Source of the DNA: Sphyrna mokarran
Lineage: Eukaryota
DNA length: 64,000 nt
Assembly: GCA_024679065.1 (NCBI GenBank)
Contig: JAGIQG010000009.1
Span: forward strand, 90,520,001-90,584,000
Reading direction: 5' to 3'
Part shown: piece by piece, positions 504 through 64,000 of the stretch
Layout: the number at the start of each line of letters is the position of its first letter
How positions within the stretch are numbered: position 1 is the stretch's first letter
Position numbers and translations under genes: made by a program
The notes under the pieces: generated by a model
Databases searched by the model: none
What the model saw: the letters and a program-made list of their open reading frames with translations, nothing else
Told to the model about the DNA's origin: nothing

Positions 504-961
504 TGTGGGAGCTGGCAACACCATACAATGCCTAATCACACGTGGCCTGATTAGGATTGGGTGAGATTCCCGTCATGATAAATGTAGATTATGCTGGTTG
601 ATGTGCAGTGTGGGCAATGCTCACCCTTGAGCTATTGCTTTGAGTGCAAGTCAGCCTCTGTTACAGGCATGAGTTGCTGGTCTCTATCACAGGGCAGGAA
701 CAGGCTGCAGATCAGCACCATATGTGTGCCCGGTGACAGCAGATTCCAAATAGTTCATGTCTGAACTGGCCTGGAGCTACAGCTGCTTCATCTGGTTAGG
801 CCTCAGTCAGCACATGGTACACTCCTCCTCACCTTGGAACATCAGCACTCAGTGCAGTTCCTGACCACACCCTGTGGCAAGACAATGCCCTCGTGGGGAA
901 GGCTATAAGAAGTCTCACAACACCAAGTTAAAGTCCAATAGATTTATTTAGTAGCACAAGC

Positions 962-996
962 CATTAGCTTTCAGAGCACTGCCCCTTCATCAGGTG
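962..996 (-). ncRNA. Minimal type I hammerhead ribozyme motif (Penelope terminal repeat)
   Basis: cac-CTGATGA-aggggc agt gctct-GAAA-gc-TA-atg; core intact, stem I has one mismatch. Confidence 0.6.
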
Positions 997-2568
997 AGTG
1001 GGAGTTCTATTCACAAACAAGGCATACAAAGACACAAACTCAATTTACAAAATAATGGTTGGAATGCGAGTCTTTACAAGTAATCAAGTCTTAAAGATAC
1101 AGACAATGTGAGTGAAGAGAGAGTTAAGCACAGGTGTGGCACATCAGAAATTGGTGTACACAGCATTACAAGGGGACACTGTCCACCGTGTCACATGTTT
1201 GTTTTCTGAGGAGGTCGGTGCGGCTTTTTCCTGTGGCACATCAGAAATGTTGATCGACGAATCGAGCATCATATCCTGTTCTCATGAGGGCAACCTACAG
1301 CATTTGGAGGTATCTGTTGCAATCCTCCTCATCTGAGCAGATCTGTGTATACGGAGGGCTTGTCTGTAGGGGATGGCTTCTTTAACGTGTTCAGGTGGAA
1401 GCTGGAGAAGTGGAGCATCTTGAGGTTATCCGTGGGCTTGCGGTACAGTGAGGTGCTGAGGTCCTTAATGGAATGCGTGTGGCCAAGAATGCAACTGATT
1501 CCAGAGAATAGTCCATGGTGAGTCTGATAGTGGGGTGGAACTTGTTGATGTCATCATATAGTTGTTTCAGTGATTATTCGCATTGAGTCCAAAGAAAGAA
1601 AATGATCAAGGATCGCAACAAACACCTCCAGACGCTGAAAGATGCCCTCATAAAGATCAGGATATGGCACCCAACTCATCAATCGCCACTTCCGATGCCC
1701 CACAGCGAAAAACCACACCAATCTCCTCAGAAAACGAACAGAGTACAGAGTAACCTTTGTTGTCCAGTACTTCCCTGGAGTGGGGAAGCTACAACATCTT
1801 CTGTGAAGTCTTCCATGTATCATTGATGAAGATGAACATCTCACCAAGGCATTCCCATACCCGCTTATTGCCTTCAAACAACCACATGATCTCAAACAGA
1901 CCACTGTTCACAGCAAACTACTCAACCTTCAGGGGAACAGTGACAACAACAGCACAAAATCCTGCCACAGCAACCTCGCAAGACATGATGGATCTTCGAC
2001 ATGGATGCCATCATCTCACGTGAGAATACCATCCACTGGGTACACGGTGCATACTCTTGCAACTCAGCCAACATTGTCAACCTGATATACTGCAGGAAAG
2101 GATGTCCCTTGGTACATTGGGGAGACTATGCTGACACTACAACAGTGGATGAATGAACATCGCTTGACAATCACCAGACAAGAGTGTTCTCTTCCTATTG
2201 GGGAACACTTCAGCAGTCACAGGCACTCGGCTTCTGATTTTCAGGTAAACGTTCTCCACAACACACAACACAGAGTCGCTGAGCAAAGACTGATAGCCAA
2301 GTTCTGCACACAAGGGTGGCCTCAATCAGGATCTTGTGTTCATGTCACACTAACTGTAACCCCCACGACTTGTCTGGGCTTGCAAAATCTCACTAACTGT
2401 CCTGTCTGGAGACAATACACATTTCTTTAATCTGTGCTTAACCCTCTCTCCACTCACATTGTGTGTACCTTTAAAACTTGATTACCTGTAAGGACTCGGA
2501 TTCCAACCATTATTTTGTAAATTGAGTTTGTGTCTTTATATGCCCTGTTTGTGAACAGAACTCCCGCT

Positions 2569-2603
2569 TACCTGATGAAGAAGTAGCACTCTGAAAGCTA
2601 GTG
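2569..2603 (+). ncRNA. Minimal type I hammerhead ribozyme motif
   Basis: tac-CTGATGA-agaagt agc actct-GAAA-gc-TA-gtg; predicted cleavage after 2600; palindromic AGCT in place of helix III. Confidence 0.6.
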
Positions 2604-2682
2604 GCCTTTGCTACCAACTAAACCTGGTGTTGTGAGACTTCTTACTGTGTTTACCCAAGTCCAATGCCAATATCTCCACATC

Positions 2683-7395: not shown

Positions 7396-8862
7396 TAAAA
7401 CCTCCCCCTCGCCTCGTGCCATATCTTGGAGACTGTGTACAGAAATCATTAAAATGCCATGAATTGTTGGAGAAAATAAACAGAAAGGTGAATGGAATGT
7501 TGGTTTAATTTCTGGAGGAAAAGAATCCAAAGAGATAGAAGAAATATTTCAGCTGTGGTTTGACCGTACCTGGGTTACTGGGAACAGTCCAGGTCCCTCG
7601 CAATACAAAGGATAGGCAGAAAGGCAGTGTAGATTGACGAGAATGATACCTGGACTCACAACAGTTAAATGATTAAGAGAGATTAGCGGGTTTAGTGAGA
7701 TAAATAGATTTTCTCTGGTTTCCTCCACATTCTGAAAGTCGTGCTGGTTAAGTGCATTGACCCGAAAAGGCTCCAGACTGTGGCGACTAGGGGAATTTCA
7801 CAGTAACTTCATTACAGTGAAAATGTAAGCTTTATTTGTGACTAATAGATAACTTTAACTTCACTTTAGATGAAAACAAGTGAGAGTTATATTCCCCAGA
7901 TTGTCAAAGGTTAAGAGATGAAATGATCAGATATTCAAGATATTATTGGGATAAGCTCGATAGCGAGAAATTATTTTCACCAATTGTTGAATCTAGGACT
8001 AAGTGACGTAGTTTAAAAATTAGAGTCAGACATTTTAGGAGTAAAACTTAAAAACACAACAAAGAACGGTACAAGTTTGGATCTCTCTTCCTCAAACAAC
8101 AAGCTAGATAAATTAATAATTTTACATCTGAGATTGATAGATTTTTATTATCCAAAGATATCAAGGGATGTGAAGCAGAGGCCAGTGGAGTTAGGTTGCA
8201 GGTCAATATGAGCTGATTGGATGATGGAATAAGAGCTTGGAGCTGAATGATTGACTCCTGTTCTTATGCAGACTGACACAAAGTATAGAGTATTTCTTGA
8301 TGATTGAGAAGATCTCATACATATTTTATGACTCTATCTTCACCCGTTATGTTGTTTTATACATTGCAATAGAGACCACACTTCAAAAATAATTTATTGC
8401 CTGTAAAACCTGTCTTGAGATATCCAATGCTTATGAGAGGTGCCACATGATTAAAAATATTTCATTTTCTTCTTTATTTAACTCTACATTTGAATAATTG
8501 AAATGTCACACCATCATCATTCTGTAACTTCTGTTTCTTTCTGTAATTTGTCTTCAGATCTGTTCCTCTAACTCCTTCCTACTATTTGATGGCCTTGAGC
8601 ATATACCCATATTTAATATTGTTCATCTTCTTTCATAATACAGAAATATTACTGTACATATGAAAAAGTGGAATAGGTCATTTGGCTCCTAGAGCATGCC
8701 CCACCATTCAATGGTGATTTGATCTGATCGTAATCTCAAATCCTCATTTCACTGATCCCATCTAACCTTTCACCCCCTTACTTGCCAAGAATCTATCTCC
8801 TCTACCTTAAAAATATTCACTTCTAAGGGTTAATGCATGGCCCGTAATACTGCCAATGGGAT

Positions 8863-9617
8863 GAATGTGCTCATGAGAAAGGCTTAAAAGATTATAAAGC
8901 TGGTTATTTTATAAGAACATAAGAGCTAGGAGCAGGAGTAGGCCATTTGGCCCCTCGGGCCTGCTCCGCCATTCAATACGATCATGACTCAGCTCCACTT
9001 ATCTGCCTGCTCACTATAGTCCCTAATTCCTTTACTGTTCAAAAATTTATTTATCCTTGCCTTGAAAACATTCAGTGAGGTAGCCTCAACTGCTTCACTG
9101 GGTGGGGAACTCCATAGATTCACAACACTTTGTGTGAAGAAGTTCCTCCACAACTCAGTCTAAATCTGCTTCCCCTTATTTTGAGGCCATGCCCCTTGGC
9201 CTCAAAAACATATAAAATTATGAAGGAAATAGATAAGATAGAAGTAGGGAAGTTGTTTCCACTGGCAGGTGAAACTAGAACCAAGGGGCATGGCCTCAAA
9301 ATAAGGGGAAGCAGATTTAGACTGAGTTGTGGAGGAACTTCTTCACACAAAGTGTTGTGAATCTATGGAGTTCCCCACCCAGTGAAGCAGTTGAGGCTAC
9401 CTCACTGAATGTTTTCAAGGCAAGGATAAATAAATTTTTGAACAGTAAAGGAATTAGGGACTATAGTGAGCAGGCAGATAAGTGGAGCTGAGTCATGATC
9501 GTATTGAATGGCGGAGCAGGCCCGAGGGGCCAAATGGCCTACTCCTGCTCCTAGCTCTTATGTTCTTATAAAATAACCAGCTTTATAATCTTTTAAGCCT
9601 TTCTCATGAGCACATTC
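8863..9617. repeat. Perfect inverted repeat: 337-bp arms (8863-9199 / 9281-9617), 81-bp spacer
   Basis: Arms read as exact reverse complements by eye; they include a CR1 3' end plus ~50 bp of non-CR1 flank. Confidence 0.95.
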
Positions 9618-10050
9618 TTCTGAATTCCAATGAGTATAGCCCCAGTCTATTAAATTCCTCCTCATAAGCTAACCCTCTCAACTCTGGAATCAACCTAGTG
9701 AATTTCCTCTGCAACCCCTCCAGTGCCAGTATATCCTTTTTTAAGTAAGGAGACCAAAACTGTACACAGTACTCTAGATGTAGCCTCACCAGCACCTATA
9801 CAGCTGCAACATAATCTCGCTGTTTTTAAACTCTATCCCTCTAACAATGAAGGACAAAATTCCATTTGCCTTCTTAATTACCTGCTGCACTTGCAAACCA
9901 ACTCTTTGTGATTCTTGCACAAGGACACCCAGATCCCTCTGCACAGCAGCATGCTGCAATTTTTTATCATTTAAATAGTAGTCCATTGCGCTGTTAATGC
10001 TACCAAAATGGATGACTCACATTTACCAACATTGTACTTCATCTGCATTA
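8912..10050 (-). mobile_element. CR1 LINE 3' portion rearranged by the inverted duplication
   Basis: [19 protein letters not shown] and YSLEFRRM fragments. Confidence 0.85.
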
Positions 10051-21859: not shown

Positions 21860-23390
21860 TATGAAAAGAACAAAGAAAGTTACAGCACAAGAACAAGCCC
21901 TTCAGCCCTCCAAGCCTACACCGGCCATGCTGTCTGAGTGAACTAAGATCCCCTACCCTTCTGGGGACCATTTCCCCCTATTCATGTATTTGTCAAGACC
22001 GCCCCCCCCTCCCCCAACCCCTTTATGTCACTATTATATCTACTCCCACTACATTCCCCGGCAGGGAGTTTCCAGGCACCCACGACCAGAATTGAACACT
22101 ATATTCCAAGTGTGCTCTAAAGTTCTATAGAGCTGCAATACAACTTGCCAATTTTTAAACTCAATGCTCCAGCCGATGAAGGCAAGCATGCCATATGTCT
22201 TCTTGACTACTTTTTCCACCTGTGTTGACACTTGCAGTGACCTGTGTTACTGTATACTCAGATCCCTTTGCCTGTCAGTACTCTTAAGGGTTCTGCCATT
22301 TACTGTATATTACCTATATGTATTAGACCTTCCAAAATGCATTACCTGATATTTGTCCAGATCAAATTCTATCTGCCATCTCTCCGCCCAAGTCTCCAAC
22401 TGATCTAGATCTTGCTGATGGTCCTCATCGCTATCCGAAAATCCGCCAATCTTTGTGCCATCCCCAAACTTACTAATCAAACCAGTTATATTTTCCTCCA
22501 AATCATTTATATATATTACAAACAGCAAAGGCCCCAGCACTGAACCCTGAGAGATGCCACTAGTCCCAGCCCTCCATTCAGAAATGTATCCTTCTACTGC
22601 TACCCTCTGTCTTCTATGACTAAGAAGTCTCACAACACCAGGTTAAAGTCTAACAGGTTTATTTGATAGCAAAAGCCACTAGCTTTCGGAGCACTGCCCC
22701 TTTGTTAGGTGAGTGGGAGTTCTGTTCACAAACAGGGCATATAAAGACACAAACTCAAGTTACAAAATAAGTCTCCACTTCTATGGCTGAGCCAGTTCTG
22801 TACCCATCTTGCCAACTCACCTTCATCTTCTGCACCAGTCTGCCATGAGGGATCTTGTCAAAGACCTTACTGAAGTCCATGTAGGCAACATCCACTGCCC
22901 TACCCTCATCAATCATCTTTGTCACTTCCTTGAAAAACTCAATCAACTTTATGGAGACACGACCTCCACTTCACAAAACCATATTGCCTCTTGATAATGT
23001 GTCCACTTATTTCCAAGTGGGAGTAAATCCTGTCTCGAAGAATCCTCTCCAATAATTTCCCTACCACTGATGTATGGCTCACCGGCCTGTAATTACCTGG
23101 ATTATTCTTGCTACCCTTCTTAAACAAAGGAACAACGTTGGCTATTTTCCAATCGTCTGGAACTTCCCATGTAGCCAGTGAAGATACAAAGATTTCTCTC
23201 AATGTCCCAGCCATTTCCTCCCTTGCTTCTCTCAGTATTCTGGGGTATATCCTATCAGGCTCTGGGGACTTGTCTACCTTAATGTTTCTCAACAATCCCA
23301 ATAACTCCTCCTTTTTGATCTCAACATGATCAAACCATCTACGCACACTTTCCCAGACTCATTATCCACCAAGTCCTTCTTTCTGGTGAA
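21860..23390 (-). mobile_element. CR1 LINE 3' half, disrupted
   Basis: GNYRPVS, MDFSKVFDKIPH and [11 protein letters not shown]; (gaacaaa) tail. Confidence 0.88.
22622..22777 (-). mobile_element. Short Penelope terminal-repeat insertion (internally deleted)
   Basis: Same terminus as 905; ends in a tctcca tail remnant; TSD cttctatgact / cttctatggct; hammerhead core decayed (CTAACAA). Confidence 0.8.
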
Positions 23391-27957: not shown

Positions 27958-30900
27958 CAGGATTAAAATTAACAATATCTCACCCAGAGAAACTTAAACA
28001 TCACCCAACCCAAACAAACCCGAATAAACCGACTGAAACAATCATCCCAGAGCTGGAACACAAACCAGATTAAACTCATATTAATGAGCACATTTCCTCC
28101 TTTCATTAATAAATGATCCTTACTCAGGTTACCAGCTCCTTACTGTTTCCATGGCCGATCGGTTTGGATAGAAGCGGTTGAGGGACTTCACTTTGGGAGA
28201 AGTCAGACCAGCAACATCTACCGCAGAGGAGAAGACCTGGTGTCAAGCAGCGGTAAGCCTGAGACACTACATTAGCGTTTCCCTCCCTCACTCCTTCTCT
28301 AACCACTCAAGGCTGACCTGCTGCTCCTGAAGAGGTGTGGGATACCTCACTTTAACAGTTATAGGCTATGAAGAAGCAACTTCACCATCTCCAAAGTTAA
28401 GGAGACAGTGGGGAGGACGCCTACTCGTAGCAGACGTCACCTACAAGAACTGCTCTCTCTGGCTGATTAATGTGTATGTCCCTGTCATCAAGACCAAGCA
28501 ACTGTTAGTTTTAGAACAGATGCCACTGCTGCTCACCACTTCCACGCCATTCTGCATTATAGACACAGCTGGCCAATCTAACAGGGCTGAAAACAAACTG
28601 GATGCTGCGTGCAGACTCCTGTTGGAAATAGTTAAAGGTGCCAAGCTGCACAACGTCTTCAGTAACCAACGGACAGGGCGCAGTGTAGGTACATATGGTC
28701 GCGGCCAGACGGGTCCACTCCAAGATTGATTTCATGTTTGTATCCCATGTGCTCAGGGTCAGGTCCACCGACGTCAAGTCCGTGTTTTTTTCTGACCACT
28801 TCCTCCTGTTGGCCGACTGTCAGCTAGAGGAAAACCAAAAAGTGGGCAGGGGGTCCTCGAAGCTAAATGCAGAACTGTTGACCTCAGAGAACCTCAAGGA
28901 ACTCAAAAGGTTTACCATGGTTGGAGAACTGTGAAACCCTTCGTTGAGTTTCTATTGCTCTGGTGGGAAAGCTTCAAGGACAACATCAAGAAGTTATTCA
29001 TCACAAAGCGGTTCAGAAGGTCAGGGAGGGACGGGGAAAAACGTCCTGACTCCAGAAAAGCATGCAGGATCTATTCCAACTGCAGTGGATAGGGGTTGAT
29101 GTAAAGGAGGATCTCCGGGTGATGAACAGCCAGCAAGCCTCACTCTTTGCCTCGGAAGCCTCCAAGGTCATCTTCTGAAGCAGGGTCCACTCTGTGGAGC
29201 AGGACAAGACATGCTCACACTTCTTCTTCCAAAACGTGCTCAGAGAAACCTCTGTGATCAACAGCCTGAAGGAAGAAGACGGCTCAGTAAGGTCATCACA
29301 GTCTGACATTCTGACCATCTGCAAATCCTTCTATGCCGGACTGTATGACCTGAAGCCAACAGACTGCACGGCCTCCTAGTTTTTCCTATTGTCTATCACA
29401 CAGGTCTTAGACGACGGAGAGTAGGAGAGCCTGGACAGACCGGTATCTCTGGATGAGCTAACAAAGGTTGTCAAGTCCTTTCAGAAAGTTAAAACTCCCA
29501 GAAGCGATGGCTTACTGGCTGAGTTTTACTGAATGTTGTGGGACTTGATAGGCCTGGACTTGCTGGAAGTATACGAGAGTATGCTCCTGGAAAGCAGCTT
29601 GTCAGAATTCATGAGGAAAGACATCATTACCCTCATCTAAAGCAGAAGGGGAAAGGGAAGAAATTAGAAATTGGTGACCCATTTCACTATTGAACGTGGA
29701 TTATAAAATTCTAGCCAAGGTCATCGTCAACCGGGTCAAGGCTGCTCTGGGGTTAGTGACCCATCTTGATCAAACCTGTGCTGTACCCGGCAGGAAGATC
29801 TCTGACAGCTTAATGCTACTCAGGGATACGATCGCCTACGTGCAGGACAGGCGGGTGGATACGTGCCTCATCAGCCTAGACCAGGAGAAGGCGTTTGACA
29901 GAATATTGCACAGCTACAAGATGGATGTACTCTCCAAAATGGGCTTTAGGGAGGGAATCCACAATTGAATCCAACTGCTCTACACAGACATCAGTGGTGC
30001 AGTTTCAATCAACAGAAGGGAATCAGATAGGTTTCAGATTATTTCTGGGGAATCAGGCAGGGCTGCCCTCTTTCCTCCGTTGTTTGTCTGTTGCATTGAA
30101 CCCTTTGCCATGGCCCTCAGAAGTGTTCCCGGCATCAAAGGGGTGACAATTCCAGGCAGCGGAAGCACGCAGGTCAAAACCTCCCTGTACATGGATGACG
30201 TGGCTGTCTTCTGCTCAGACCCTCGTCTGTTCACAGGCTCTTCCAGGTTTGTGAGCAGTTCAAGCTGGCCTCGGGAGCCAAAGTCAATCAGGCCAAGAGC
30301 AAGGCCATGTTTTTTGGGAACTGAGCTGAGAGATCCTTTGTCCCCTTCACCATCAGGACAGATTACCTTAAGGTGTTGGGGATATGGTATGGAGTGGCAG
30401 GGGCATGCTTCAGAACTGGGAAGAGTGCATCGCAGAAGTGAGACAAAAATTGGGCTTGTGGGAACAACTCTCCCTCTCTATCATCAAAAAAAACCTGGTG
30501 ATCCGGTGCGAGGTGCTGTCCGTGTTGTTGTATGTGGCGCAGGTGTGGCCTATCCTTGCGCTGCAGCAGTGATCCAGGCCATCTTCAGATTTATCTGAAG
30601 ATTAAAGATGGATCATGTCCGAAGGGAAGCGATGCATAAATCTTCAGAGAATGGAAAGAAAATCATTCCTGCCGCCCTTATCCTGATGGCAACCTTTGTG
30701 TGCGGCTGCATCAAGCTATGTAGATCCTCGGTACACTAACAGCAAGTGCCACTATCTTTTGAGGTTCTACCTGTCTCAAGTGTTGCAGAGGATGGGTCTG
30801 GCCACACTGCCACAGAACACTCCAAGTAGTTGGACTGTACCGCAGCACTTGTCCTTCACGGAGAAATTTTTCCACGAGCACTCCATTGACCACATGGCGA

Positions 30901-31108
30901 TTAAGCAGTGGTCGGCACGTAACGTCCTTGAGGCCCTGAGAGAAAAGGAGATGGCGGATCCTGTCGGATGGTTCCCTGAGCAGACTGTCAGTGTCATCTG
31001 GCAAAATGCCTCATCATGTGGAGGTGCCAGCATTGGACTGGGGTAAACACATTAAGAAATCTCTCAACACCAGGTTAAAGTCCAACAGCTTTATTTGGTA
31101 GTAAACGC

Positions 31109-31143
31109 CACAAGCTTTCGGGGCTCTGCCCCTTCCTCAGGTG
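31109..31143 (-). ncRNA. Minimal type I hammerhead ribozyme motif, best-preserved copy
   Basis: cac-CTGAGGA-a-ggggc aga gcccc-GAAA-gc-TT-gtg: intact core, perfect 5-bp stem II, stem I cac/gtg, AAGCTT palindrome in place of helix III. Confidence 0.72.
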
Positions 31144-31171
31144 AATGTAGAACTCTCCACTGGTCTCCACT

Positions 31172-31206
31172 CACCTGATGAAGAGGCAGAAGCCCGAAAG
31201 CTTGTG
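31172..31206 (+). ncRNA. Minimal type I hammerhead ribozyme motif
   Basis: cac-CTGATGA-agaggc agaa gccc-GAAA-gc-TT-gtg; core intact, stem II weakened. Confidence 0.62.
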
Positions 31207-32024
31207 CTGTTTACTACCTAATAAACCTGTTGGACTTTAAACTGGTGTTGTAAGACTTCTTACTGAGAATGCCTCATCACCAAAACTACAAACAAGCACA
31301 AAGACCTGACTTGGCTGGTGATGAGAAGGCATTCCCCGTCAGATCCTTTATGCACACTCGAGGTCTCAACATCACTGCACGCTGCCTTCGAAGCAACTGT
31401 GGGGCTGATCAGATGGCCACACACCTTGTGGAATATGCCTTTGCAAAGAAGGTCTGGAGTGAGATGCAGTGGTATTTGTCGAGGTTTGTCCCGAGCAGCT
31501 CGGTGATGCAGGACTCTGTGCTCTATGGGCTGTTTCTGGGACGCACGCCGAGACAAATATCAACTGCTGGAGGGTCATCAACTTGGCAAAGGACGCAGTT
31601 TGGTCTGCCCGAAACTTGCTGATCTTCCAGTTGAAAGAACTGTCCTTGACCGAGTGTTGCAGACTAGCACATTCTAAGGTCCAGGACTATGGGCTGAGGG
31701 ACGCCCTGAAGGTTGGGGCAAATGCCACAAATGGGGAAAGGCCACACTATAAAACCTTTCAACTGAAGCAGACTGAGGGACCGGGAACTGTAGAAAACCC
31801 TCGGCCTGCATAATTGTGTGCCAATCTGAAAGATAACAGCACACAGTAAACTTACCAAATATATATAGTTTCAAGTACTGAAATGTAATCAGCCTTGCAA
31901 ATAAGCTTAGTAAAGTTTTGTAAAAATGACTATCTTTTTTGCACTGTTTGTAATTATCTGATCTATTGTTTTGCAAAGGCTTATTTGAGAGTATTTTTAT
32001 AAGGTATATTTTTGGAAAAAAAAA

Positions 32025-35200: not shown

Positions 35201-38200
35201 CCCAGAATCGTGAGAGAGGCAAGGGAGGAAAGAAGGCATTTGTTAAGAAGGCATATGGAGTCTTAGCTTTTATTGGTAGGGGGATTGAATTTCGGAGCCG
35301 CAACGTCATGTTGCAACTGTACAAAACTCTAATGCAGCCGCACTTGGAGTATTGTGTACAGTTCTCGTCCCCACATTATAAGAAAAATGTGGAGGCATTG
35401 GAGAGGGTACAGAGGAGGTTTACCAGGATGTTGCCTGGTATGGAGGGCAGGTCTTATGAAGAGAGGCTGAGGGATTTGAGGTTGTTTTCGTTAGAAAGGA
35501 GGCGGCTAAGACGGGACCTAATCGAAACATATAAGATGATTAGAGGTTTAGATAGGGTGGACAGTGATAGCCTTTTTCCTAGGATGGAGAAAGCTAGCAC
35601 GAGGGAACACAGCTTTAAATTAAGGGGTGATAGTTATAGGACGGATATCAGAGGTAAGTTCTTTACCCAAAGGGTGGTTCGGGAGTGGAATGCCCTGCCT
35701 GCAGCAGTTGTAGATGCGCCAAGTTTGGTTGCGTTTAAGAGGTTAGTTGATAAATATATGGAAGAGAAGGGAATGGTTTAGTTTGGAGGGTCATTGCTTT
35801 TTATATTGGTCGGCGCAACATCGAAGGCCAAAGGGCCTGTTCTGTGCTGTAATGTTCTATGTTCTAACTGGGGGCCTGGAAAGAAATCTTTGTATCCTCA
35901 CAGGTTATTGCAGAGGTCCCAGAGGATTGGAGAATAGCCAGTGTTGTTCCTTTGTTTAAGTGTAACAAGAATAATCCAAGAAATTACAGGTCGGTGAGCC
36001 TTACACCAGTGATATGGAAATTATGGGAAAGGATTCTTCGAGACAGGATTTATTCCTATTTGGAAATAAGTGGATGTATTAGTGAGAGGCAATATGGTTT
36101 TGTGAAGGGGAGGTCGTGTCTCACGAACTTGATCAAGTTTTTCGATGAAGTGACAAGATGATTGAGGGTAGAACAGTGGATGTTGTCTATATGGACTTAA
36201 GTAAGGCCTTTGACAAAGTCCGTCATTGGCAGACTGATGCAGAAGGTGAAGTCACATGGGATTAGAAATGAGTTGGTAAGGTGGATACAAAACTGGTTCA
36301 GTCAAAGAACACAAAGAAATCCCACAACACCAGTTTAAAGCCCAAACAGGTTTATTTGTAGCAAAAGCCGCAAGCTTTTGGGACAGCCTGTCCCTTCATC
36401 AGGTAGCTGGGAGTTCTGGTCGTAAAAATGACACAAAGATACAAACTCAATTTACGTACATAATGATTGAAATGTAAGTCTTTACAGCTAATCGATTCTT
36501 AAAGGTACAGACAATGTGAGTAGAAAGAGTTTTAAGCACAGGTTAAAGAACTGTGTATTGTTTCCAGACAGGAAAGTTAGTGAGCATTTGCAAGTCCAGG
36601 CACATTGTGGGGGTTACAGATAGTGCAACATGAACCCAAAATCCTGGTTGAGGCCATTCTCAAGTGTGTGGAACTTGGCTATCAGTCTCTGTTCAGCAAC
36701 TTTGCGCTGTAGTATGTCCTGACGGCCAACTTGGAGAACACTTATCTGAAGATCAGAGGCCGAATGTCCATGACCACTGAAATGTTCACCAACAGGAAGA
36801 GAACAGTCTTGTCTGGTGATTGTTGAGCGGTGTTCATTCATCCGTTGTCTTAACATCTGCATGGTCTCCCAATATACTGCTCGACAATCACCAGGCAAGA
36901 CTGGTCGCTTCCTATTAAGGAACACTTCAGTGGTCATGGACATTCAGCTTCTGATCTTTGGATAAGTGTTCTCCAAGGTGGCCTTCAGGACACATGATAG
37001 CGCAGAGTCGCTGAGCAGAAACTGATAAGCCAAGTTCTGCACACATGGGAACAGCCTCAACTGGGATCTTGGGTTCATGTCACACTATCTGTAACCCACA
37101 CAACTTGTCTAGACTTGCAAAATCTCACTAACTTTCCTGTCTGGAAACAATACACATCTCTTTAACCAGTGCTTAAAGCTCTCTCCTCTCACATTGTCTG
37201 TACTTTTAAGAATCAATCAGCTGTAAAGACTCACATTCCAATCATTATGCATGTAAATTCAGTTTGTGTCTTTGTGTCATTTTTACAACCAGAACTCCCA
37301 GCCACCTAACAAAGGACAGGCTGTCCCAAAAGCTTGCGGCTTTTGCTACATATAAACCTGTTTGGACTTTAAACTGGTGTTGTGGGATTTCTTTGTGTTT
37401 TACCCCAGTCCAAAGCCGGCATGTCCACATCATGTCAATCAAAGAAGATAGAGGTTAGCTGTGGAAGGGCACGTTTCTGAATGGAGCGTTGTGACAACTT
37501 GCTTTCCTCAGGTTCAGAGCTAGGACATTTGCTGTTTGTAATATCTATAAGTGATTTGGAGGAAAATGGAACTGGTTTGCTTAGTAAGTTTGCGGATGAC
37601 ACAAAGGTTGGTGGATTTGCGGATAGCGACGAGAACCATAGAGCAGGATATAGATCAGCTGGAGACTTGGGCAGACAGATGACAGATGGAGTTTAATCCA
37701 GACAAATGTGAGGTAATGCATTTTGGAAAGCCTAATACAGATAAGAAATATACAATAAATGGCAGAACTCTTAAGAGTATTAATAGCAAAGGGATCTGGG
37801 TGTATAGGTACACAGGTCACTGAAAGTAGCAGTGCAGATTGAGAAAGTAATTAAGAAGGCATACAGCATGTTTGCCTTCATCGGCCAGGGCATTGAATTT
37901 AAAAATTGGCAAGTCATGTTACTTTATAGAATCTTATAGCTTTATAGAATCTTAGTTAGGCCGCACTTGGAATCTAGTGTTCAATTCTGGTCGCCATACT
38001 GCCAGAAGGGTGTGGACGCTTTGGAGAGGATACAGAAAAAATTTACCAGGACGTTGCCTGGTATGGAGGGCATTAGCTATGAGGAGAGGTTGGAGAAACT
38101 TAGTTTGTTCTCACTGGAACAACAGAGGTTGAGGGGAGACCTGATCGAAGTCTACAAGATTATGAAGGGCATGGTCAGAGTGGATAGTCAGAAGCTTTTT

Positions 38201-40045: not shown

Positions 40046-41883
40046 GAAGTCACACAACACCAGGTTAAAGTCCAATTGGTTTGTCAGGTAAAATCCTTTG
40101 TCAAGTAAGCAGGAGTTCAGTTCACAAGCAGAACATATAAAGACACAAACTCAAATTACAAAATAATGGTTGGAATGCAAGTTTTTATAGCTAATCAAGT
40201 CTTAAAGGTACAGATAATTTGATTGGAGACACATTAAGCACAGGTTTAAGAGATGTGTATTATCTCCAGCCAGGACAATTAGTGACATTTTGCAAGCCCC
40301 ATGGGGGTTACAGATTGTGTAACATGAACCCAAAATCCCGGTTGAGGCCGTTCTCATGTGTGCAGAACTTGGCTATCAGTCTTTGCTCAGTGACTTTGCT
40401 CAATGAGTCATGCCGCCTTGGAAAACACTTAGCCGAAGATCAGAAGCTAAATGCCGTGAATGCTGAAGTGTTCGCAACAGGAAGGGAACAGTCTTGCCTA
40501 GTGATTGTCGAGCGATATTCATTCATCCATTGTCGTAGCGTCTGCATGGTCTCCCCAATGTACCATACCTCAGGACATCCTTTCCTGCAGCGTATTAGGT
40601 AGACAACGTTGGCCAACTTGCAAGTGTATGTACCAGGTATCTGGTGCACAGTGTTCTTAGGTGAGATGATGGCATTCATGTCAATGATCTGGCATGCCTT
40701 ACAGAGGTTGCTGTGATAGGGTTGTGTGATGTCTTGGTCACTGTTCCCCTGAAGGCTGTAGTTTGCTACGGACGTTGGTCTGTTTAAAGTCTTGCGGTTG
40801 TTTGAAGGCAAGAAGTAAGAACATGGGGATGGCCTTGGCAAGATGTTCATCTTCATCAATGACATGATGAAGGCTCTGGAGAAGATGTCATAGTTTGTCT
40901 GCTCTGGGGAAATACTGGACAACGAAAGGCAGCCGTGTCTGCTGTGTCCCGTGTTTGTGTTCTGAGGAGATTGGTGTGGTTTTCGCTATGGTGTATTGGA
41001 ATTGTCAATCGATGAGTCGAGTGCCAAACCCTATACTTACAGACTTAAGCGTCTATACTTAAAGATGCTTAAGATGCACCTTTAAGCATCTGGTGGTATC
41101 TGTTGCAATCCTCCTCATCTGCGCAGATTGTCAGCAGCAAACTACCCAGCCTTCAGGAGAACAGTGACCACGACACCACAACAACTTCTGCAAGACATGC
41201 CGGATCATTGACAAGATGGCATCATCTCACGTGAGAACACCATTCACAAGGTACATACTCTTGCAACTTGGCCAATGTTGTACACCTGATAACGCTGCAG
41301 GAAAGGATATCCTGAGACACTCGCTATGACAATGGATGAATGAGCACCGCTCAACAATCACCAGGCAAGAGCGTTCTTTTCCTGTTGGGAACACTTCAGC
41401 AGTCATGGGCATTCAGCCTCTGATTTTCAGGTAAGCATTCTCCAAGGCGGTCTTCACGACACATGACAACGCAGAGTCACTGAGCAGAGACTGATACATG
41501 AGAACGGCCTCAACCAGGATCTTGGGTTCATGTCATACTATCTCTAACCCTGACGACTTGTCTGGGCTTGCAAAATCTCACTAACTGTCCTGGCAGGAGA
41601 CAATATACATCTCTTTAACTTGTGCTTAACTCTCTCTCCACTCACATTCTCTGTACCTTCTAAGATTTGATTACCTGTAAAAGCTCGCATTCCAAACATT
41701 ATTTTGTAAATTAAGTTTATGTCTTTATATGCACTGTTTGTGAACAGAACTCCCACTTACCTGATAAAGGGGCAGCACTCCGAAAGCTAGTGGCTTTTGC
41801 TTCTAAATAAACCTGTTGGACTTTAACCTGGTGTTGTTAGACTTCTGTGCTTATCCCAGTCCAAAGCTGGCATTTTCACATCA
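40046..41883. mobile_element. Penelope-like element, inverted two-part copy
   Basis: GIY-YIG motif NVVYLIRCRKGCPEVWYIGET (ORF 40440-40922); inverted termini; right-hand tail; perfect TSD ttttacacacta (40034-40045 / 41884-41895); hammerhead at 41758-41792 with G8A. Confidence 0.9.
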
Positions 41884-44722: not shown

Positions 44723-47461
44723 AGAACGTAGAACATAGAACATTACAGCACAGAACAGGCCCTTCGGCCTTCGATGTTGTGCCGACCAAAATAAAAAGCA
44801 ATGCCCCTCCAAACTAAACCATTCCCCTCTCTTCCATATACTTATCAATTAACCTCTTAAACGCCACCAAACTTGGCGCATCTACAACAGCTGCAGGCAG
44901 GGCATTCCACTCCCTAATCACTCTTTGAGTAAAGAACCTACCTCGGATATCCGTCCTATAACTCATACCCCTTAATTTAAAGCTGTGTCCCCTCGTGCTA
45001 GCTTTCTCCATCCTAGGAAAAAAGGCTATCACTGTCCACCCTATCTAAACCTCTAATCATCTTATATGTTTCGATTAGGTCCCCTCTTAGCCGCCTCCTT
45101 TCTAACGAAAACAACCTCAAATCCCTCAGCCTCTCTTCATAAGACCTGCCCTCCAGACCAGGCAACATCCTGGTAAACCTCCTCTGTACCCTCTCCAATG
45201 CCTCCACATCTTTCTTATAATGTGGGACCAGAACTGCACACAATACTCCAAGTGCGGCCGCACTAGAGTTTTGTACAGTTGCAACATGATGATGCGGCTC
45301 CTAAATTCAATCCCCCTACCAATAAAAGCTAAGACTCCATATGCCTTCTTAACAACTTTATCCACTTGACTGCCTACTTTCAGGGATCTATTGAAACATA
45401 CACCAAGATCCTTCTGTTCCTCAACACTATTAAGAGCCCTACCATTAGCCCTATACTCTACACATTTGTTATTTCTGCCAAAGTGCATTACCTCACACTT
45501 TTTCACATTAAACTCCATTTGCCACCTCTCGGCCCAGCTCTGCAACTTGTCCAAGTCACTCTGTAAACTATAACACCCTCTTCACTATCTACCACTCCAC
45601 CGACTTTAGTGTCATCTGCAAATTTACTGATCCATCCCTCAATACCCTCATCCAGATCATTTATAAAAATTACAAACAGCAGGGGCCCCAAAACAGACCC
45701 CTGAGGCACACCACTCGTCACCGAACTCCACGATGAATATCTCCCATCAACCACCACCGTCTGTCTTCTATCTGCCAGCCAATTCCTAATCCAATTAGCT
45801 AAATCAACCTCTATTCCACACATCTGCATTTTCTGTAGAAGTCTGCCATGGGCCACCTTATCAAACGCCTTACTAAAGTCCATATATACTACATCAACCG
45901 CCTTACCCCCATCCACCTCTTTGGTCACTTTCTCAAAAAACTCAATGAGGTTAGTAAGGCATGACCTACCCTTCACGAAAACATGCTGACTATCCCCAAT
46001 CAATTCATTTCTCTCTAAATAACTATAAATCCTATCCCTAATAATTCTCTCCAACACTTTGCCCACAACAGAAGTAAGACTCACTGCCTATAATTCCCTG
46101 GAAGGTCTCTCTTCCCCTTCTTGAACAACGGGACCACATTCGCTATCCTCCAGTCCTCCGGAACCACACCCATAACCAACGACGACCTGAAGATCAGAGC
46201 AGAGGCTCTGCAATCTCCTCTCTTGCCTCCCAGAGAATCCTAGGGTAAATCCCGTCCGGCCCAGGGGACTTATCCAACTTCACACCCTCGAGAATTTCTA
46301 GCACATCCTCCCTATCTACTACAATACTTCCCAATTTGCAACCCTGTACCTCAGTGTTCTCCATAGCTACATTTCCAGCACTCTGCGTGAATACCGAAGA
46401 GAAATATTTATTCAATGCCTCACCAATCTCTTCAGGCTCCACTCACAACTTTCCACTGCTGTCTATGACTGGCCCTAATCTTGCCCTACCCAATCTTCTA
46501 TTCTTAACATATCGAAAGAAAGCTTTAGGATTCTCCTTAATCCTATCAGCCAACATCTTCTCGTGTCCCCTCTTAGCTCTCCTCAATTCAGTTTTTACCT
46601 CCTTCCTGGCTAATCTATAGCTATCCATTGCACTATCTGAGCCTTCAAGCCTCATCCTAACATAAGCCTCCTTTTTCTTCTTAACCAGCAAATCAACTTT
46701 TTTCTTACACCAAGGCTCTCTTACTCGACCATTTCCTCCCTGCCTGACAGGGACATACTTATCAAGGACTCGCAGCAGCTGCTCCTTGAATAAGCACCAC
46801 ATTCCAGATGTTCCCAGTCCCTGTAGTTTCCTAGTCCAATCTATGCACCCTAATTCTCTCCTGATGGCCTCATAATTACCCTTCCCCAGCTATAACTACT
46901 GCCCCCAGCTTCATGCCTATCCCTATCCATCACTAAGGTGAACGTAACCGAATTGTGGTCACTATCACCAAAATGTTCACTAACTTCCAAGCCTAACACC
47001 TGGTCTGGCTCATTGCCCAGCACCAAATCCAATGTAGCCTCACCTCTAGTTGGCCTATCTACATACTGAGTCAAAAAACCTTCCTGCACACTCTGTACGA
47101 AAACTGACCCCTCTAACGAGCTAGAGCTATAGCTATTCCAATCAATATTAGCAAAGTTAAAGTCCCCCATCACAATTACCCTACCACTTTCACTCCTAAT
47201 CAGAATTGACTTTGCAATCCTTTCCTCAACCTCTCTAGAACTATAGGAGGTCTGTAAAAGACTCCCAACAGGGTGACCTCTCCTCTCCTGTTTCTAATCT
47301 CAGCCCATACTACCTCAACAGACAAGTCCTCATCAAACTTCTTTTCTATCACTGTGATACAGTCTTTGACCAATAATGCCACTCCTCCCCCCCTTCTACC
47401 TCCTTCTCTACTCCGACTAAAGCATTTGTACCCCAGAACCTGCAACATCCATTCCTGTCCC
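44723..47461 (-). mobile_element. Young CR1 LINE, 5'-truncated, inserted into an HE1-like SINE (SINE halves 44580-44722 and 47462-47632)
   Basis: Almost continuous EN+RT ORF2 with few frameshifts ([30 protein letters not shown]); SINE is colinear across the insertion. Confidence 0.92.
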
Positions 47462-61558: not shown

Positions 61559-62795
61559 ACATTGATTAAATTGTCTAAAATTGGAAAATTACTCTGATTA
61601 TATATTTATAATGCTTTCTTCACAAACCAGAAATCATGGGCTAGATTTTTCTTGTTCACCCAAGAAGGAGCTTCACCTAAAGGGAATTACTACTGGAAAT
61701 GAGGATGCACTCCCCAACTTGTGCCTAAAATGTTAATAAGAAGTTCTGAAAGGAAAATGTGTGATTGGTGTCAATTTCCAATAATAAGATAAACTCCTTT
61801 ATTCTGAAATAAAAATAATGTTGGAAATAATCTGCAGGTTAGGCAGCATCTGTGGGGGGAAACAAAGTTTCAGATCAAGGTGAGCTTTCATCAGAAAGTC
61901 TTTAATCTGTTTGGATTGAATTGAGATTATCACTAACACTGAACTGGAACATTTTTCATGTTGTGAGAGTTGCGTTCAGAGTGCTCATCTGGAATAGACT
62001 CTGAAAGCTAACAGACTGAACAAACTTTCTACCTATTGGACAGGGTTGGAATAGAATCCCCATCCACAATACAGATGACTGGTATCTGACTAACCCACTC
62101 TAACCCCTGTACATCCAACAATTAATCATCCAACAATGGACTGAGAAATTATAAAACTATTTTAATGTGACTGAGTTTGTACAAGTAGTGGGTTGAGAGA
62201 ATCAGAATGATTTTGATTCTCATTTTTGGAAAAGGGATGTCAGTAAACTAGTCTGATCTGACCAGCTGGGCTAGATTGTGGGCAGTAAACATGTAGAAAT
62301 CTGCCTCAGGTGGGAATTTAAATGAACGATAGTAAATCGATAGCTTGTTTTACCCACTATCCCATCTCCTTTTTCACTGAGCTCAATAAGTCAAGTAAGT
62401 ACCGAAGTTCACCAGCTATTGTCCATTTTGCACAACTTTTGACAACTAATTAATATTTCAGTGAATGCTGAGAGTGACTGAGACTCAGACATTATTACAA
62501 TTCAATATGCAGTATCTTCCTGCAGCTTGTGACTGGGGAAGCCGGGCGTCTCTTTTACACTATGGGAATCTGCTTGAGTGAAGAGTCCAACGCCGGCAGC
62601 TCCATATCATAGTTACACTTGAACTAGCCCTGAATTGCTGTAAAATACAGAGTTCAAATTAGCCCATTAGCTAAACCTGAGCATAGCCTGACTGAGGACC
62701 TGCTTTAACTTTTAATCCAAAAAATAATTGAATTATTTCAATTCAAACCTGTGATAAACTTTACAATGTCTCCCCCTGTAGGAGAGAGAGATTTA

Positions 62796-63822
62796 CATAG
62801 AACATAGAACATTACAGCGCAGAACAGGCCCTTCGGCCTTCGATGTTGCGCTGACCAATTAGGAAAAAGCAATGACTCTCCATACTAAACCATTCCCTTT
62901 TCGTCCATAAACGTATCTATTAACCTCTTAAACGCCACCAAACTTGGCGCATCTACAACTGCCGCAGGCAGGGCATTCCATACCCTTACCACCCTCTGGG
63001 TAAAGAACCTACCTCTGACATCCGTCCTATAACTACCACCCCTTAATTTAAAGCTATGTCCCCTCGTTCTAGCTTTCTCCATCCTAGGAAAAAGGTTATC
63101 ACTGTCCACCCTATCTAAACCTCTAATCATCTTATATGTTTCAATAAGGTCTCCTCTTAGCCGCCTTCTTTCTAACGAAAACAACCTCAAATCCCTCAGC
63201 CTCTCTTCATAAGACCTGCCTTCCATACCAGGCAACATCCTGGTAAACCTCCTCTGTACCCTTTCCAATGCCTCCACATCTTTCTTATAATGCGGGGACC
63301 AGATCTGTACACAATACTCCAAGTGCGGCCACACTAGAGTTTTGTACAGTTGCAACATGACTTTGCGGCTCCGAAATTCAATCCCCCTACCAATAAAAGC
63401 TAAGACTCCGTATGCCTTCTTAACAATCTTATCGACTTGATTGCAAACTTTCAGGGATCTATGCACATATACACCAAGATCCCTCTGTTCATCAACACTA
63501 TTAAGAATCCTACCATTAGCCCTATACTCTACACATTTGTTATTCCTGCCAAAGTGAATTACCTCACACTTTTCCACATTAAACTCCATTTGCCACCTCT
63601 CGGCCCAGCTCTGCAACTTGTCCAAATCTCTCTGCAAACTATAACACCCCTCTTCACTATCTACCACTCCACCGACTTTAGTGTCATCTGCAAATTTACT
63701 AATCCATCCTTCAATACCCTCATCCAGATCATTTATAAAAATTACAAACAGCAGGGGCCCCAAAACAGATCCCTGAGGTACACCACTTGTAACCGAACTC
63801 CATGATGAATAATTTCCATCAA
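62796..63822 (-). mobile_element. Young CR1 LINE, 5'-truncated, open RT C-terminal ORF (292 aa)
   Basis: ORF 62885-63763 is uninterrupted and closely similar to 44723-45760 and 35231-35866. Confidence 0.93.
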
Positions 63823-64000
63823 CATTACATTCTCACATTAACCCAATGGCAGTGAGGGTGAAATTTCTTCTCAGTAACTTCAGAGTATGAACTCTGTCTT
63901 CTGCTTTGACCCCATTTCCATTCATTTTATTTCATTTTGTTTCTTTTTTTCATCTCATTCATCCATTTTTATCATCTTCTTTCTCACTCCCACTTTTCCA

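Follow-up and report, generated by a model that had tools for sequence, protein, structure and literature searches.

The window, that is, the whole 64-kb stretch of shark DNA analysed here, contains an MHC class II alpha gene on its minus strand (59260-21300), recognized by its Pfam MHC_II_alpha and C1-set domains. Exons 1 to 3 of this gene are open, no exon 4 was located, and its long first intron is filled with repeats (Table 1). One of these, a 251-bp element at 31017-31267, is the subject of this work. It splits a decayed non-LTR retrotransposon, presumably Tx1/L1-like, whose reading frame can be followed across the insertion (...IWQNASS, the insert, then NASSPKL...). Since the host LINE frame resumes across the 12-nt repeat flanking the element, this repeat is a true TSD.

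Other repeats of the window differ in age and kind. Younger LINE RT copies (44729-45355, 35240-35866 and 62795-63823) were 92-95% identical to one another, and a 315-aa frame was still open in the LINE copy at 62885-63832. A 340-nt inverted repeat (8860-9199 and 9281-9620) with 100% complementarity and an 81-nt spacer was unrelated to the PLE family described below; it presumably resembles the 3′-end of a CR1/L2-type LINE, and arose either by fold-back duplication, very recently, or as an artefact of the assembly or the reads.

Table 1. Position of the features discussed in the text, numbered from the first nucleotide of the window
Feature	Position	Strand	Remarks
MHC class II alpha exon 1	59080-59014	-	X-Y-box-like promoter at about 59260
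MHC class II alpha exons 2, 3	about 27930-27683, 21585-21304	-	
MHC intron 1	27934-59013	-	about 31 kb, repeat-filled; holds the 251-bp element and insertions C and D
Host non-LTR retrotransposon, decayed	28331-31810 (limits approximate)	+	the element splits it; matches RVT_1 at 29678-29965
Left TSD, 12 bp	31005-31016	+	perfect match to 31268-31279
PLE tail, 33 nt, at a single end	31017-31049	-	homologues in the tails of A, C and D
Tailed arm (3′ ~100 nt of the PLE pseudo-LTR)	31050-31151	-	minus is the element sense
Minimal type I hammerhead	31108-31144	-	C3 at 31140; helices I and II of 4 and 5 bp
Loop at the inversion junction, 12 nt	31152-31163	+	
Inverted arm without tail (pseudo-LTR 3′-end, second copy)	31164-31267	+	plus is the element sense
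Minimal type I hammerhead	31172-31206	+	C3 at 31175; intact core, 3-bp helix I and a bulge in helix II
Right TSD, 12 bp	31268-31279	+	perfect match to 31005-31016
Insertion A	905-2682	+	relics of RT and GIY-YIG between an inverted and a tailed end; TSD of 10 bp
Insertion B	22619-22777	-	single truncated PLE end of 159 bp, without tail; TSD of at least 8 bp
Insertion C	36311-37434 (about)	+	near-symmetrical palindrome (arms ~520 bp, loop 44-48 nt) with a tail; TSD of ~12 bp, imperfect
Insertion D	40046-41883	+	GIY-YIG region between an inverted and a tailed end; TSD of 12 bp

The anatomy of the element can be read directly from its letters. The two arms (31050-31151 and 31164-31265) were identical at 87 of 102 positions and aligned without gaps. 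Judged from this alignment, the loop that joins them appears to extend the tailless arm in the upstream direction, with a short direct repeat, TCTCCACT. No coding sequence was found in 31017-31267, where stop-free frames reached at most 40 aa and those starting with Met at most 20 aa; lacking an RT or endonuclease ORF, the element is a fragment rather than an autonomous element. A search with a 40-aa frame spanning the junction returned two candidates, none at E ≤ 10. The eight matches to a 39-aa junction-spanning frame (35-41% identity, with three to eight repeated stretches each) were judged to be due to chance. The first-pass annotation had described inverted arms, a small loop, a tail of 33 nt, a perfect TSD of 12 bp and no coding capacity, and every one of these points was confirmed, the arms measuring 102 bp and the loop 12 nt. 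Each strand of the 251-nt element was predicted to fold as a rod, with an MFE of -146.9 kcal/mol (plus) or -155.1 kcal/mol (minus). The corresponding z values were -16.5 and -14.4, and none of 200 shuffled sequences folded equally well.

Hammerhead cores and their pairing within the rod

Each arm includes a minimal type I hammerhead core that fits the pattern CUGANGA-H-G...C-GAAA-GC-UH. In 100 simulated 64-kb sequences, the chance expectation was 0 strict and 0.01 relaxed core matches per window. When scored against the consensus for minimal PLE hammerheads, NNN CUGANGAH G...C GAAAN-palindrome-NUH NNN (PMC4209133), neither arm departed from it at any of the 18 scored positions. Both cores have an extra base between positions 9 and 10.1, a G10.1-C11.1 pair, a palindromic 15.2-16.2 segment and a short helix I, and both lack helix III. 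In each core, the palindrome AGCU, without a loop, takes the place of helix III. Cleavage of the minus core is predicted at 31112/31111, and that of the plus core between 31203 and 31204. The minus core was the sole strict minimal-hammerhead match in the 64-kb window. A comparison of the element with Rfam gave 18 matches at E ≤ 5, and the hammerhead family was absent from them. These matches, mostly to miRNA hairpins, all scored under their gathering thresholds and were dismissed as generic hairpins. The earlier description of complete hammerhead cores on both strands is therefore correct for the core nucleotides, but it does not extend to helix III, absent from both, or to an Rfam hammerhead match.

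The MHC gene and the minus ribozyme share a strand, and the latter is thus in the sense orientation of the pre-mRNA. With the longer helix I and an unbulged helix II, this ribozyme is the better preserved of the two, in agreement with the proposal that the best-preserved ribozyme is sense to MHC intron 1. An AATAAA motif in the tailed arm (31095-31090, minus strand) is likewise sense to this intron, and lies within the stem of the rod.

A paper from 2017 reportedly described PLE hammerheads that cleave as dimers. According to PMC4209133, the lone minimal motif shows no cleavage and dimers cleave weakly. The ribozyme of an anole PLE was found to cut only when the protein was present (PMC11167929), while eight of nine Xenopus dimers assayed were inactive (10.64898/2026.07.22.740005). 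The dependence on dimers or protein considered here is taken from these papers.

In the computed rod, each ribozyme core pairs with the opposite arm. To hold the core open was calculated to cost 40.5 kcal/mol (minus strand) and 45.4 kcal/mol (plus strand) in the complete rod, versus 3.4 and 9.1 kcal/mol, respectively, in a single arm. The hairpin would thus most likely lock both ribozymes. On each strand, transcription reaches the antisense arm first and the ribozyme arm second. The former, being made first in the MHC pre-mRNA, would pair with the latter, so that intron 1 is most likely left uncut at the element in vivo. For both strands, two folded monomers were more stable than the modelled double hammerhead (-26.4 versus -22.9 for the minus strand, -24.6 versus -9.1 for the plus strand); pairing between two molecules would therefore be possible on paper, but not favoured. 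No intact partner core was found on the minus strand within the MHC gene, the cores of insertion B and of the inverted ends of C and D being broken.

Related insertions and the origin of the element

Seven other PLE ends were observed in the window, with 69-87% identity to the arms and tail of the element in local matches. Insertions A, C and D account for six of them, and insertion B for the seventh. The three former insertions (about 1,780, 1,120 and 1,840 bp, respectively) share one plan, namely an inverted tailless end, a body, a tailed end and a TSD, as in the 251-bp element, which is the shortest of the four inverted insertions. Insertion C is a larger version of its palindrome: this PLE sequence of 1.1 kb is nearly perfectly palindromic, with 89% of it paired. 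Both ribozyme cores of insertion C are broken, and it is a stronger substrate for dsRNA formation or editing than the 251-bp element. Insertion B, in turn, indicates that very short PLE insertions are common in the window.

The PLE protein search gave 26 matches, mostly to named shark proteins. One of them, P0007 from Heptranchias, contains an RT, a CX4CxxC linker (CHSNLCKTC) and a GIY-YIG-type motif, and aligns to the bodies of A, C and D; relics of the linker are present in insertion D. Pfam searches with frameshifted PLE and LINE pieces were mostly empty (0/4 in one set, nothing significant in another), and the PLE identity was therefore taken from the shark protein matches. A Zn-finger-like CX2-5CxxC linker preceding the GIY-YIG domain is common to Neptune, Nematis and Naiad (PMC8557442). 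Judging from this linker, which was seen in a sister subfamily and not in the parent of the element, the family appears to be a shark Neptune-type PLE. The window includes no other copy of the element's subfamily, and neither the upstream sequence of its parent nor the true breakpoint is therefore visible. The shark protein isoforms P0008, P0011, P0021, P0022, P0023 and P0025 include sequence from the PLE GIY-YIG region, owing either to exonisation or to an annotation error.

The element is probably a one-off, dead-on-arrival insertion of this shark Neptune-type PLE in which both copied ends were only ~100-135 nt long. The first-pass annotation had offered extreme truncation of an inverted insertion as one of two readings, and it is well supported by insertions A, C and D, which have the same layout, other junctions and a similar arm divergence. 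Inversion junctions differed in all four inverted insertions, and the divergence between arms was 14.7% for the 251-bp element as compared with 11.3% (A), 12.3% (C) and 14.4% (D; Fisher p = 0.65).

Such an insertion would begin with the GIY-YIG endonuclease nicking the two DNA strands 12 nt apart, which would generate the TSD. The RT would then prime cDNA synthesis at both nicks, using a distal start on the RNA that includes the 33-nt tail and a proximal start that excludes it, and the two cDNAs would be joined head to head. For this last step, we infer either a microhomology of a few bases or a fold-back. The nicking of two strands and the two RT starts are taken from published work on an anole PLE, which belongs to the Poseidon clade and not to Neptune. 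Its protein makes a nick in each strand of the target and extends both; reverse transcription begins at two RNA sites close to each other, the distance between them being the tail, and the RNA used as the insertion template is uncut (PMC11167929). Self-priming has been proposed for such junctions (PMC3846280). Since the ribozyme lies ~65-125 nt from the element end, even the shortest product of this kind would have one per strand, and ribozymes in two polarities follow automatically from inversion of the end that bears them. The predicted cut sites are 95 and 64 nt from the ends of the element, and both arms span them. Both cDNAs thus extend beyond the cleavage site, and their templates were therefore uncut. 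The tailless arm reached further upstream than the tailed arm in all four inverted insertions (p = 0.125); if this bias is genome-wide, it would help to choose between dual priming and fold-back.

In favour of a one-off truncation, the 15 differences between the two arms were split between the left (8) and the right (7) arm. The two arms also clustered together with a support of 89/91, under the level starred by the tool, and had six changes in common that were absent from the arms of A, B and D. Against this reading, transversions accounted for 9 of the 15 differences, as compared with 52 of 177 in A, C and D taken together (p = 0.021; 0.038 when two slipped dinucleotides were treated as indels, and 0.093 against D alone), in tests that were post hoc, uncorrected and based on small numbers. 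CpG-type changes made up 1 of the 15 differences, and the CpG sites for a comparison of retention were only two. Under strict scoring, cores were intact in both arms of the element and in none of the seven others (p = 0.028); under lenient scoring, they were intact in two of two and two of seven, respectively (p = 0.17), both tests being post hoc. The probability that the 12 TSD positions had remained identical by chance at 14.7% divergence was 0.15. Taken together, the transversion-rich differences, the intact cores and the perfect TSD hint that the arms were already different at the time of insertion, as would be the case if two RNAs had been copied or if the source was a short master element.

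The second possibility, the other of the two readings offered earlier, corresponds to a short, non-autonomous palindromic family with a fixed junction, mobilised in trans by the PLE RT and endonuclease. A shark family of this kind, copied as a ~250-bp unit made of two PLE ends, would be a retrotransposon analogue of MITEs with an intact hammerhead on each strand and, if real, a new non-autonomous PLE form beside the tandem retrozymes. Each strand ends in the PLE RT start region so that, speculatively, complementary cDNAs could regenerate the whole unit. The hints from the arms, cores and TSD would fit a younger insertion of a pre-diverged master, and the element does represent a distinct subfamily. 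In addition, pLTR ends have been reported to allow mobilisation in trans on their own (PMC3846280), and animal retrozymes have been proposed to be non-autonomous PLE derivatives (10.64898/2026.07.22.740005). However, the junction was present once in the window, the other three inverted insertions each have a junction of their own, and the total divergence of the arms equals that of the long copies. Searches with junction-spanning translations yielded nothing related, although this is weak evidence. Further, the same hints would fit two cDNAs derived from two different RNAs, and the two arms of inverted PLE insertions may indeed be copied from two different RNA molecules, a milder version of the same idea. 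We therefore regard a fixed-junction family as unlikely. Only one copy of the 251-bp element was found in the 64-kb window. Searches with a 24-nt conserved motif against prokaryotic genomes and blastn searches against plasmids and phages gave no matches; these sets contain no shark DNA and are uninformative on copy number.

Two further explanations assign a function to the ribozymes. The host could have co-opted the element as an intronic ribozyme, or as a dsRNA hairpin, that tunes the expression of the MHC class II alpha gene. The sense orientation of the best-preserved ribozyme, its status as the only strict match in the window and the sense AATAAA in the tailed arm would agree with this. 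Against it, the core is sequestered in the rod, the minus strand of the gene offers no intact partner, the hairpin formed by insertion C in the same intron is much longer (1,124 nt), and the counts of G.U and A.C pairs in the rod show no significant strand bias (1 versus 5, p = 0.22), all of which makes co-option very improbable. The chance that a viroid-like RNA has integrated here, or that the element is a retrozyme unit which its own ribozymes free and close into a circle, is next to negligible. The element is indeed rod-like, non-coding and 251 nt long, with hammerheads in both polarities, but its halves are copies of one sequence and both derive from a PLE end. It has no tandem repeat and, with one cut site per strand, it would release no unit-length circle; the missing helix III and the modelled instability of the double hammerhead point in the same direction. 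The likeness to viroids and retrozymes noted in the first-pass annotation is thus geometric and lends no support to a shared mechanism, the ribozymes being of the dimer type, sequestered and one per strand.

Relation of the element to known systems

Hammerhead viroids and satellite RNAs are small rod-like RNAs with ribozymes in both polarities. The element resembles hammerhead viroids and viroid-like satellite RNAs in its size, its rod fold and the presence of ribozymes in both polarities that pair with their complements. Unlike them, it is a chromosomal insertion with a TSD, forms no multimer and lacks helix III. Where a viroid-like RNA would have a non-redundant rod and ribozymes that cut multimers, the element has duplicate halves and sequestered, dimer-type cores. 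MITEs, in turn, are short and non-coding, with inverted ends and a TSD. The element shares all these traits, but its ends derive from a retrotransposon and are asymmetric, since one of them has a tail, and they are not the terminal repeats of a DNA transposon.

The non-LTR retrozymes of metazoans consist of head-to-tail tandem units, each with a hammerhead, that release circles (PMC7229834; 10.64898/2026.07.22.740005). Like them, the element is short, non-coding and PLE-derived and has a type I hammerhead; unlike them, it has no tandem arrangement, its two halves forming one head-to-head palindrome in which each strand bears one ribozyme of the dimer type.

Pairs of minimal hammerheads on opposite strands, 100-700 bp apart, were described in 2014 in Schistosoma, and one was found in a bracovirus PLE (PMC4209133). 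The cores of the element are only ~35 bp apart, closer than this range. Sharks were absent from its supplementary alignment and table as far as these were accessible, and the accessible part of PMC6155905 added nothing on sharks. A literature search that reached few subscription papers and no repeat libraries found no paper on a palindromic PLE family in sharks. The supplementary tables of 10.64898/2026.07.22.740005 list retrozyme families of one chondrichthyan and may bear on novelty. The earlier suggestion that such an element is undescribed in sharks thus has to be qualified: no shark-specific description was found in the literature searched, in the parts available, but the layout itself is known from Schistosoma.

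The closest match is to the EN+ PLEs of the Neptune type, which share with the element an inverted, 5′-truncated end, a tail on one side, a TSD of ~10 bp and a pseudo-LTR hammerhead. PLE insertions typically include a truncated copy in inverted orientation and a tail of 30-40 bp (PMC8557442, legend to its Figure 2), and Pen2a_Av of Adineta has an inverted pLTR, a 31-bp tail and a 9-bp TSD (PMC3846280). Its relatives have an RT, a Cys linker and a GIY-YIG domain, whereas the element has no coding sequence; it also differs in its total length of 251 bp and in that both arms end within ~25 nt upstream of the ribozyme core. The presence of four inverted PLE insertions in 64 kb suggests that sharks contain very many of them. 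The sequence at 31017-31267 is an unusually short example of this already known insertion class, and its modest value is mechanistic, in what it can tell about how PLEs form inverted ends and tails.
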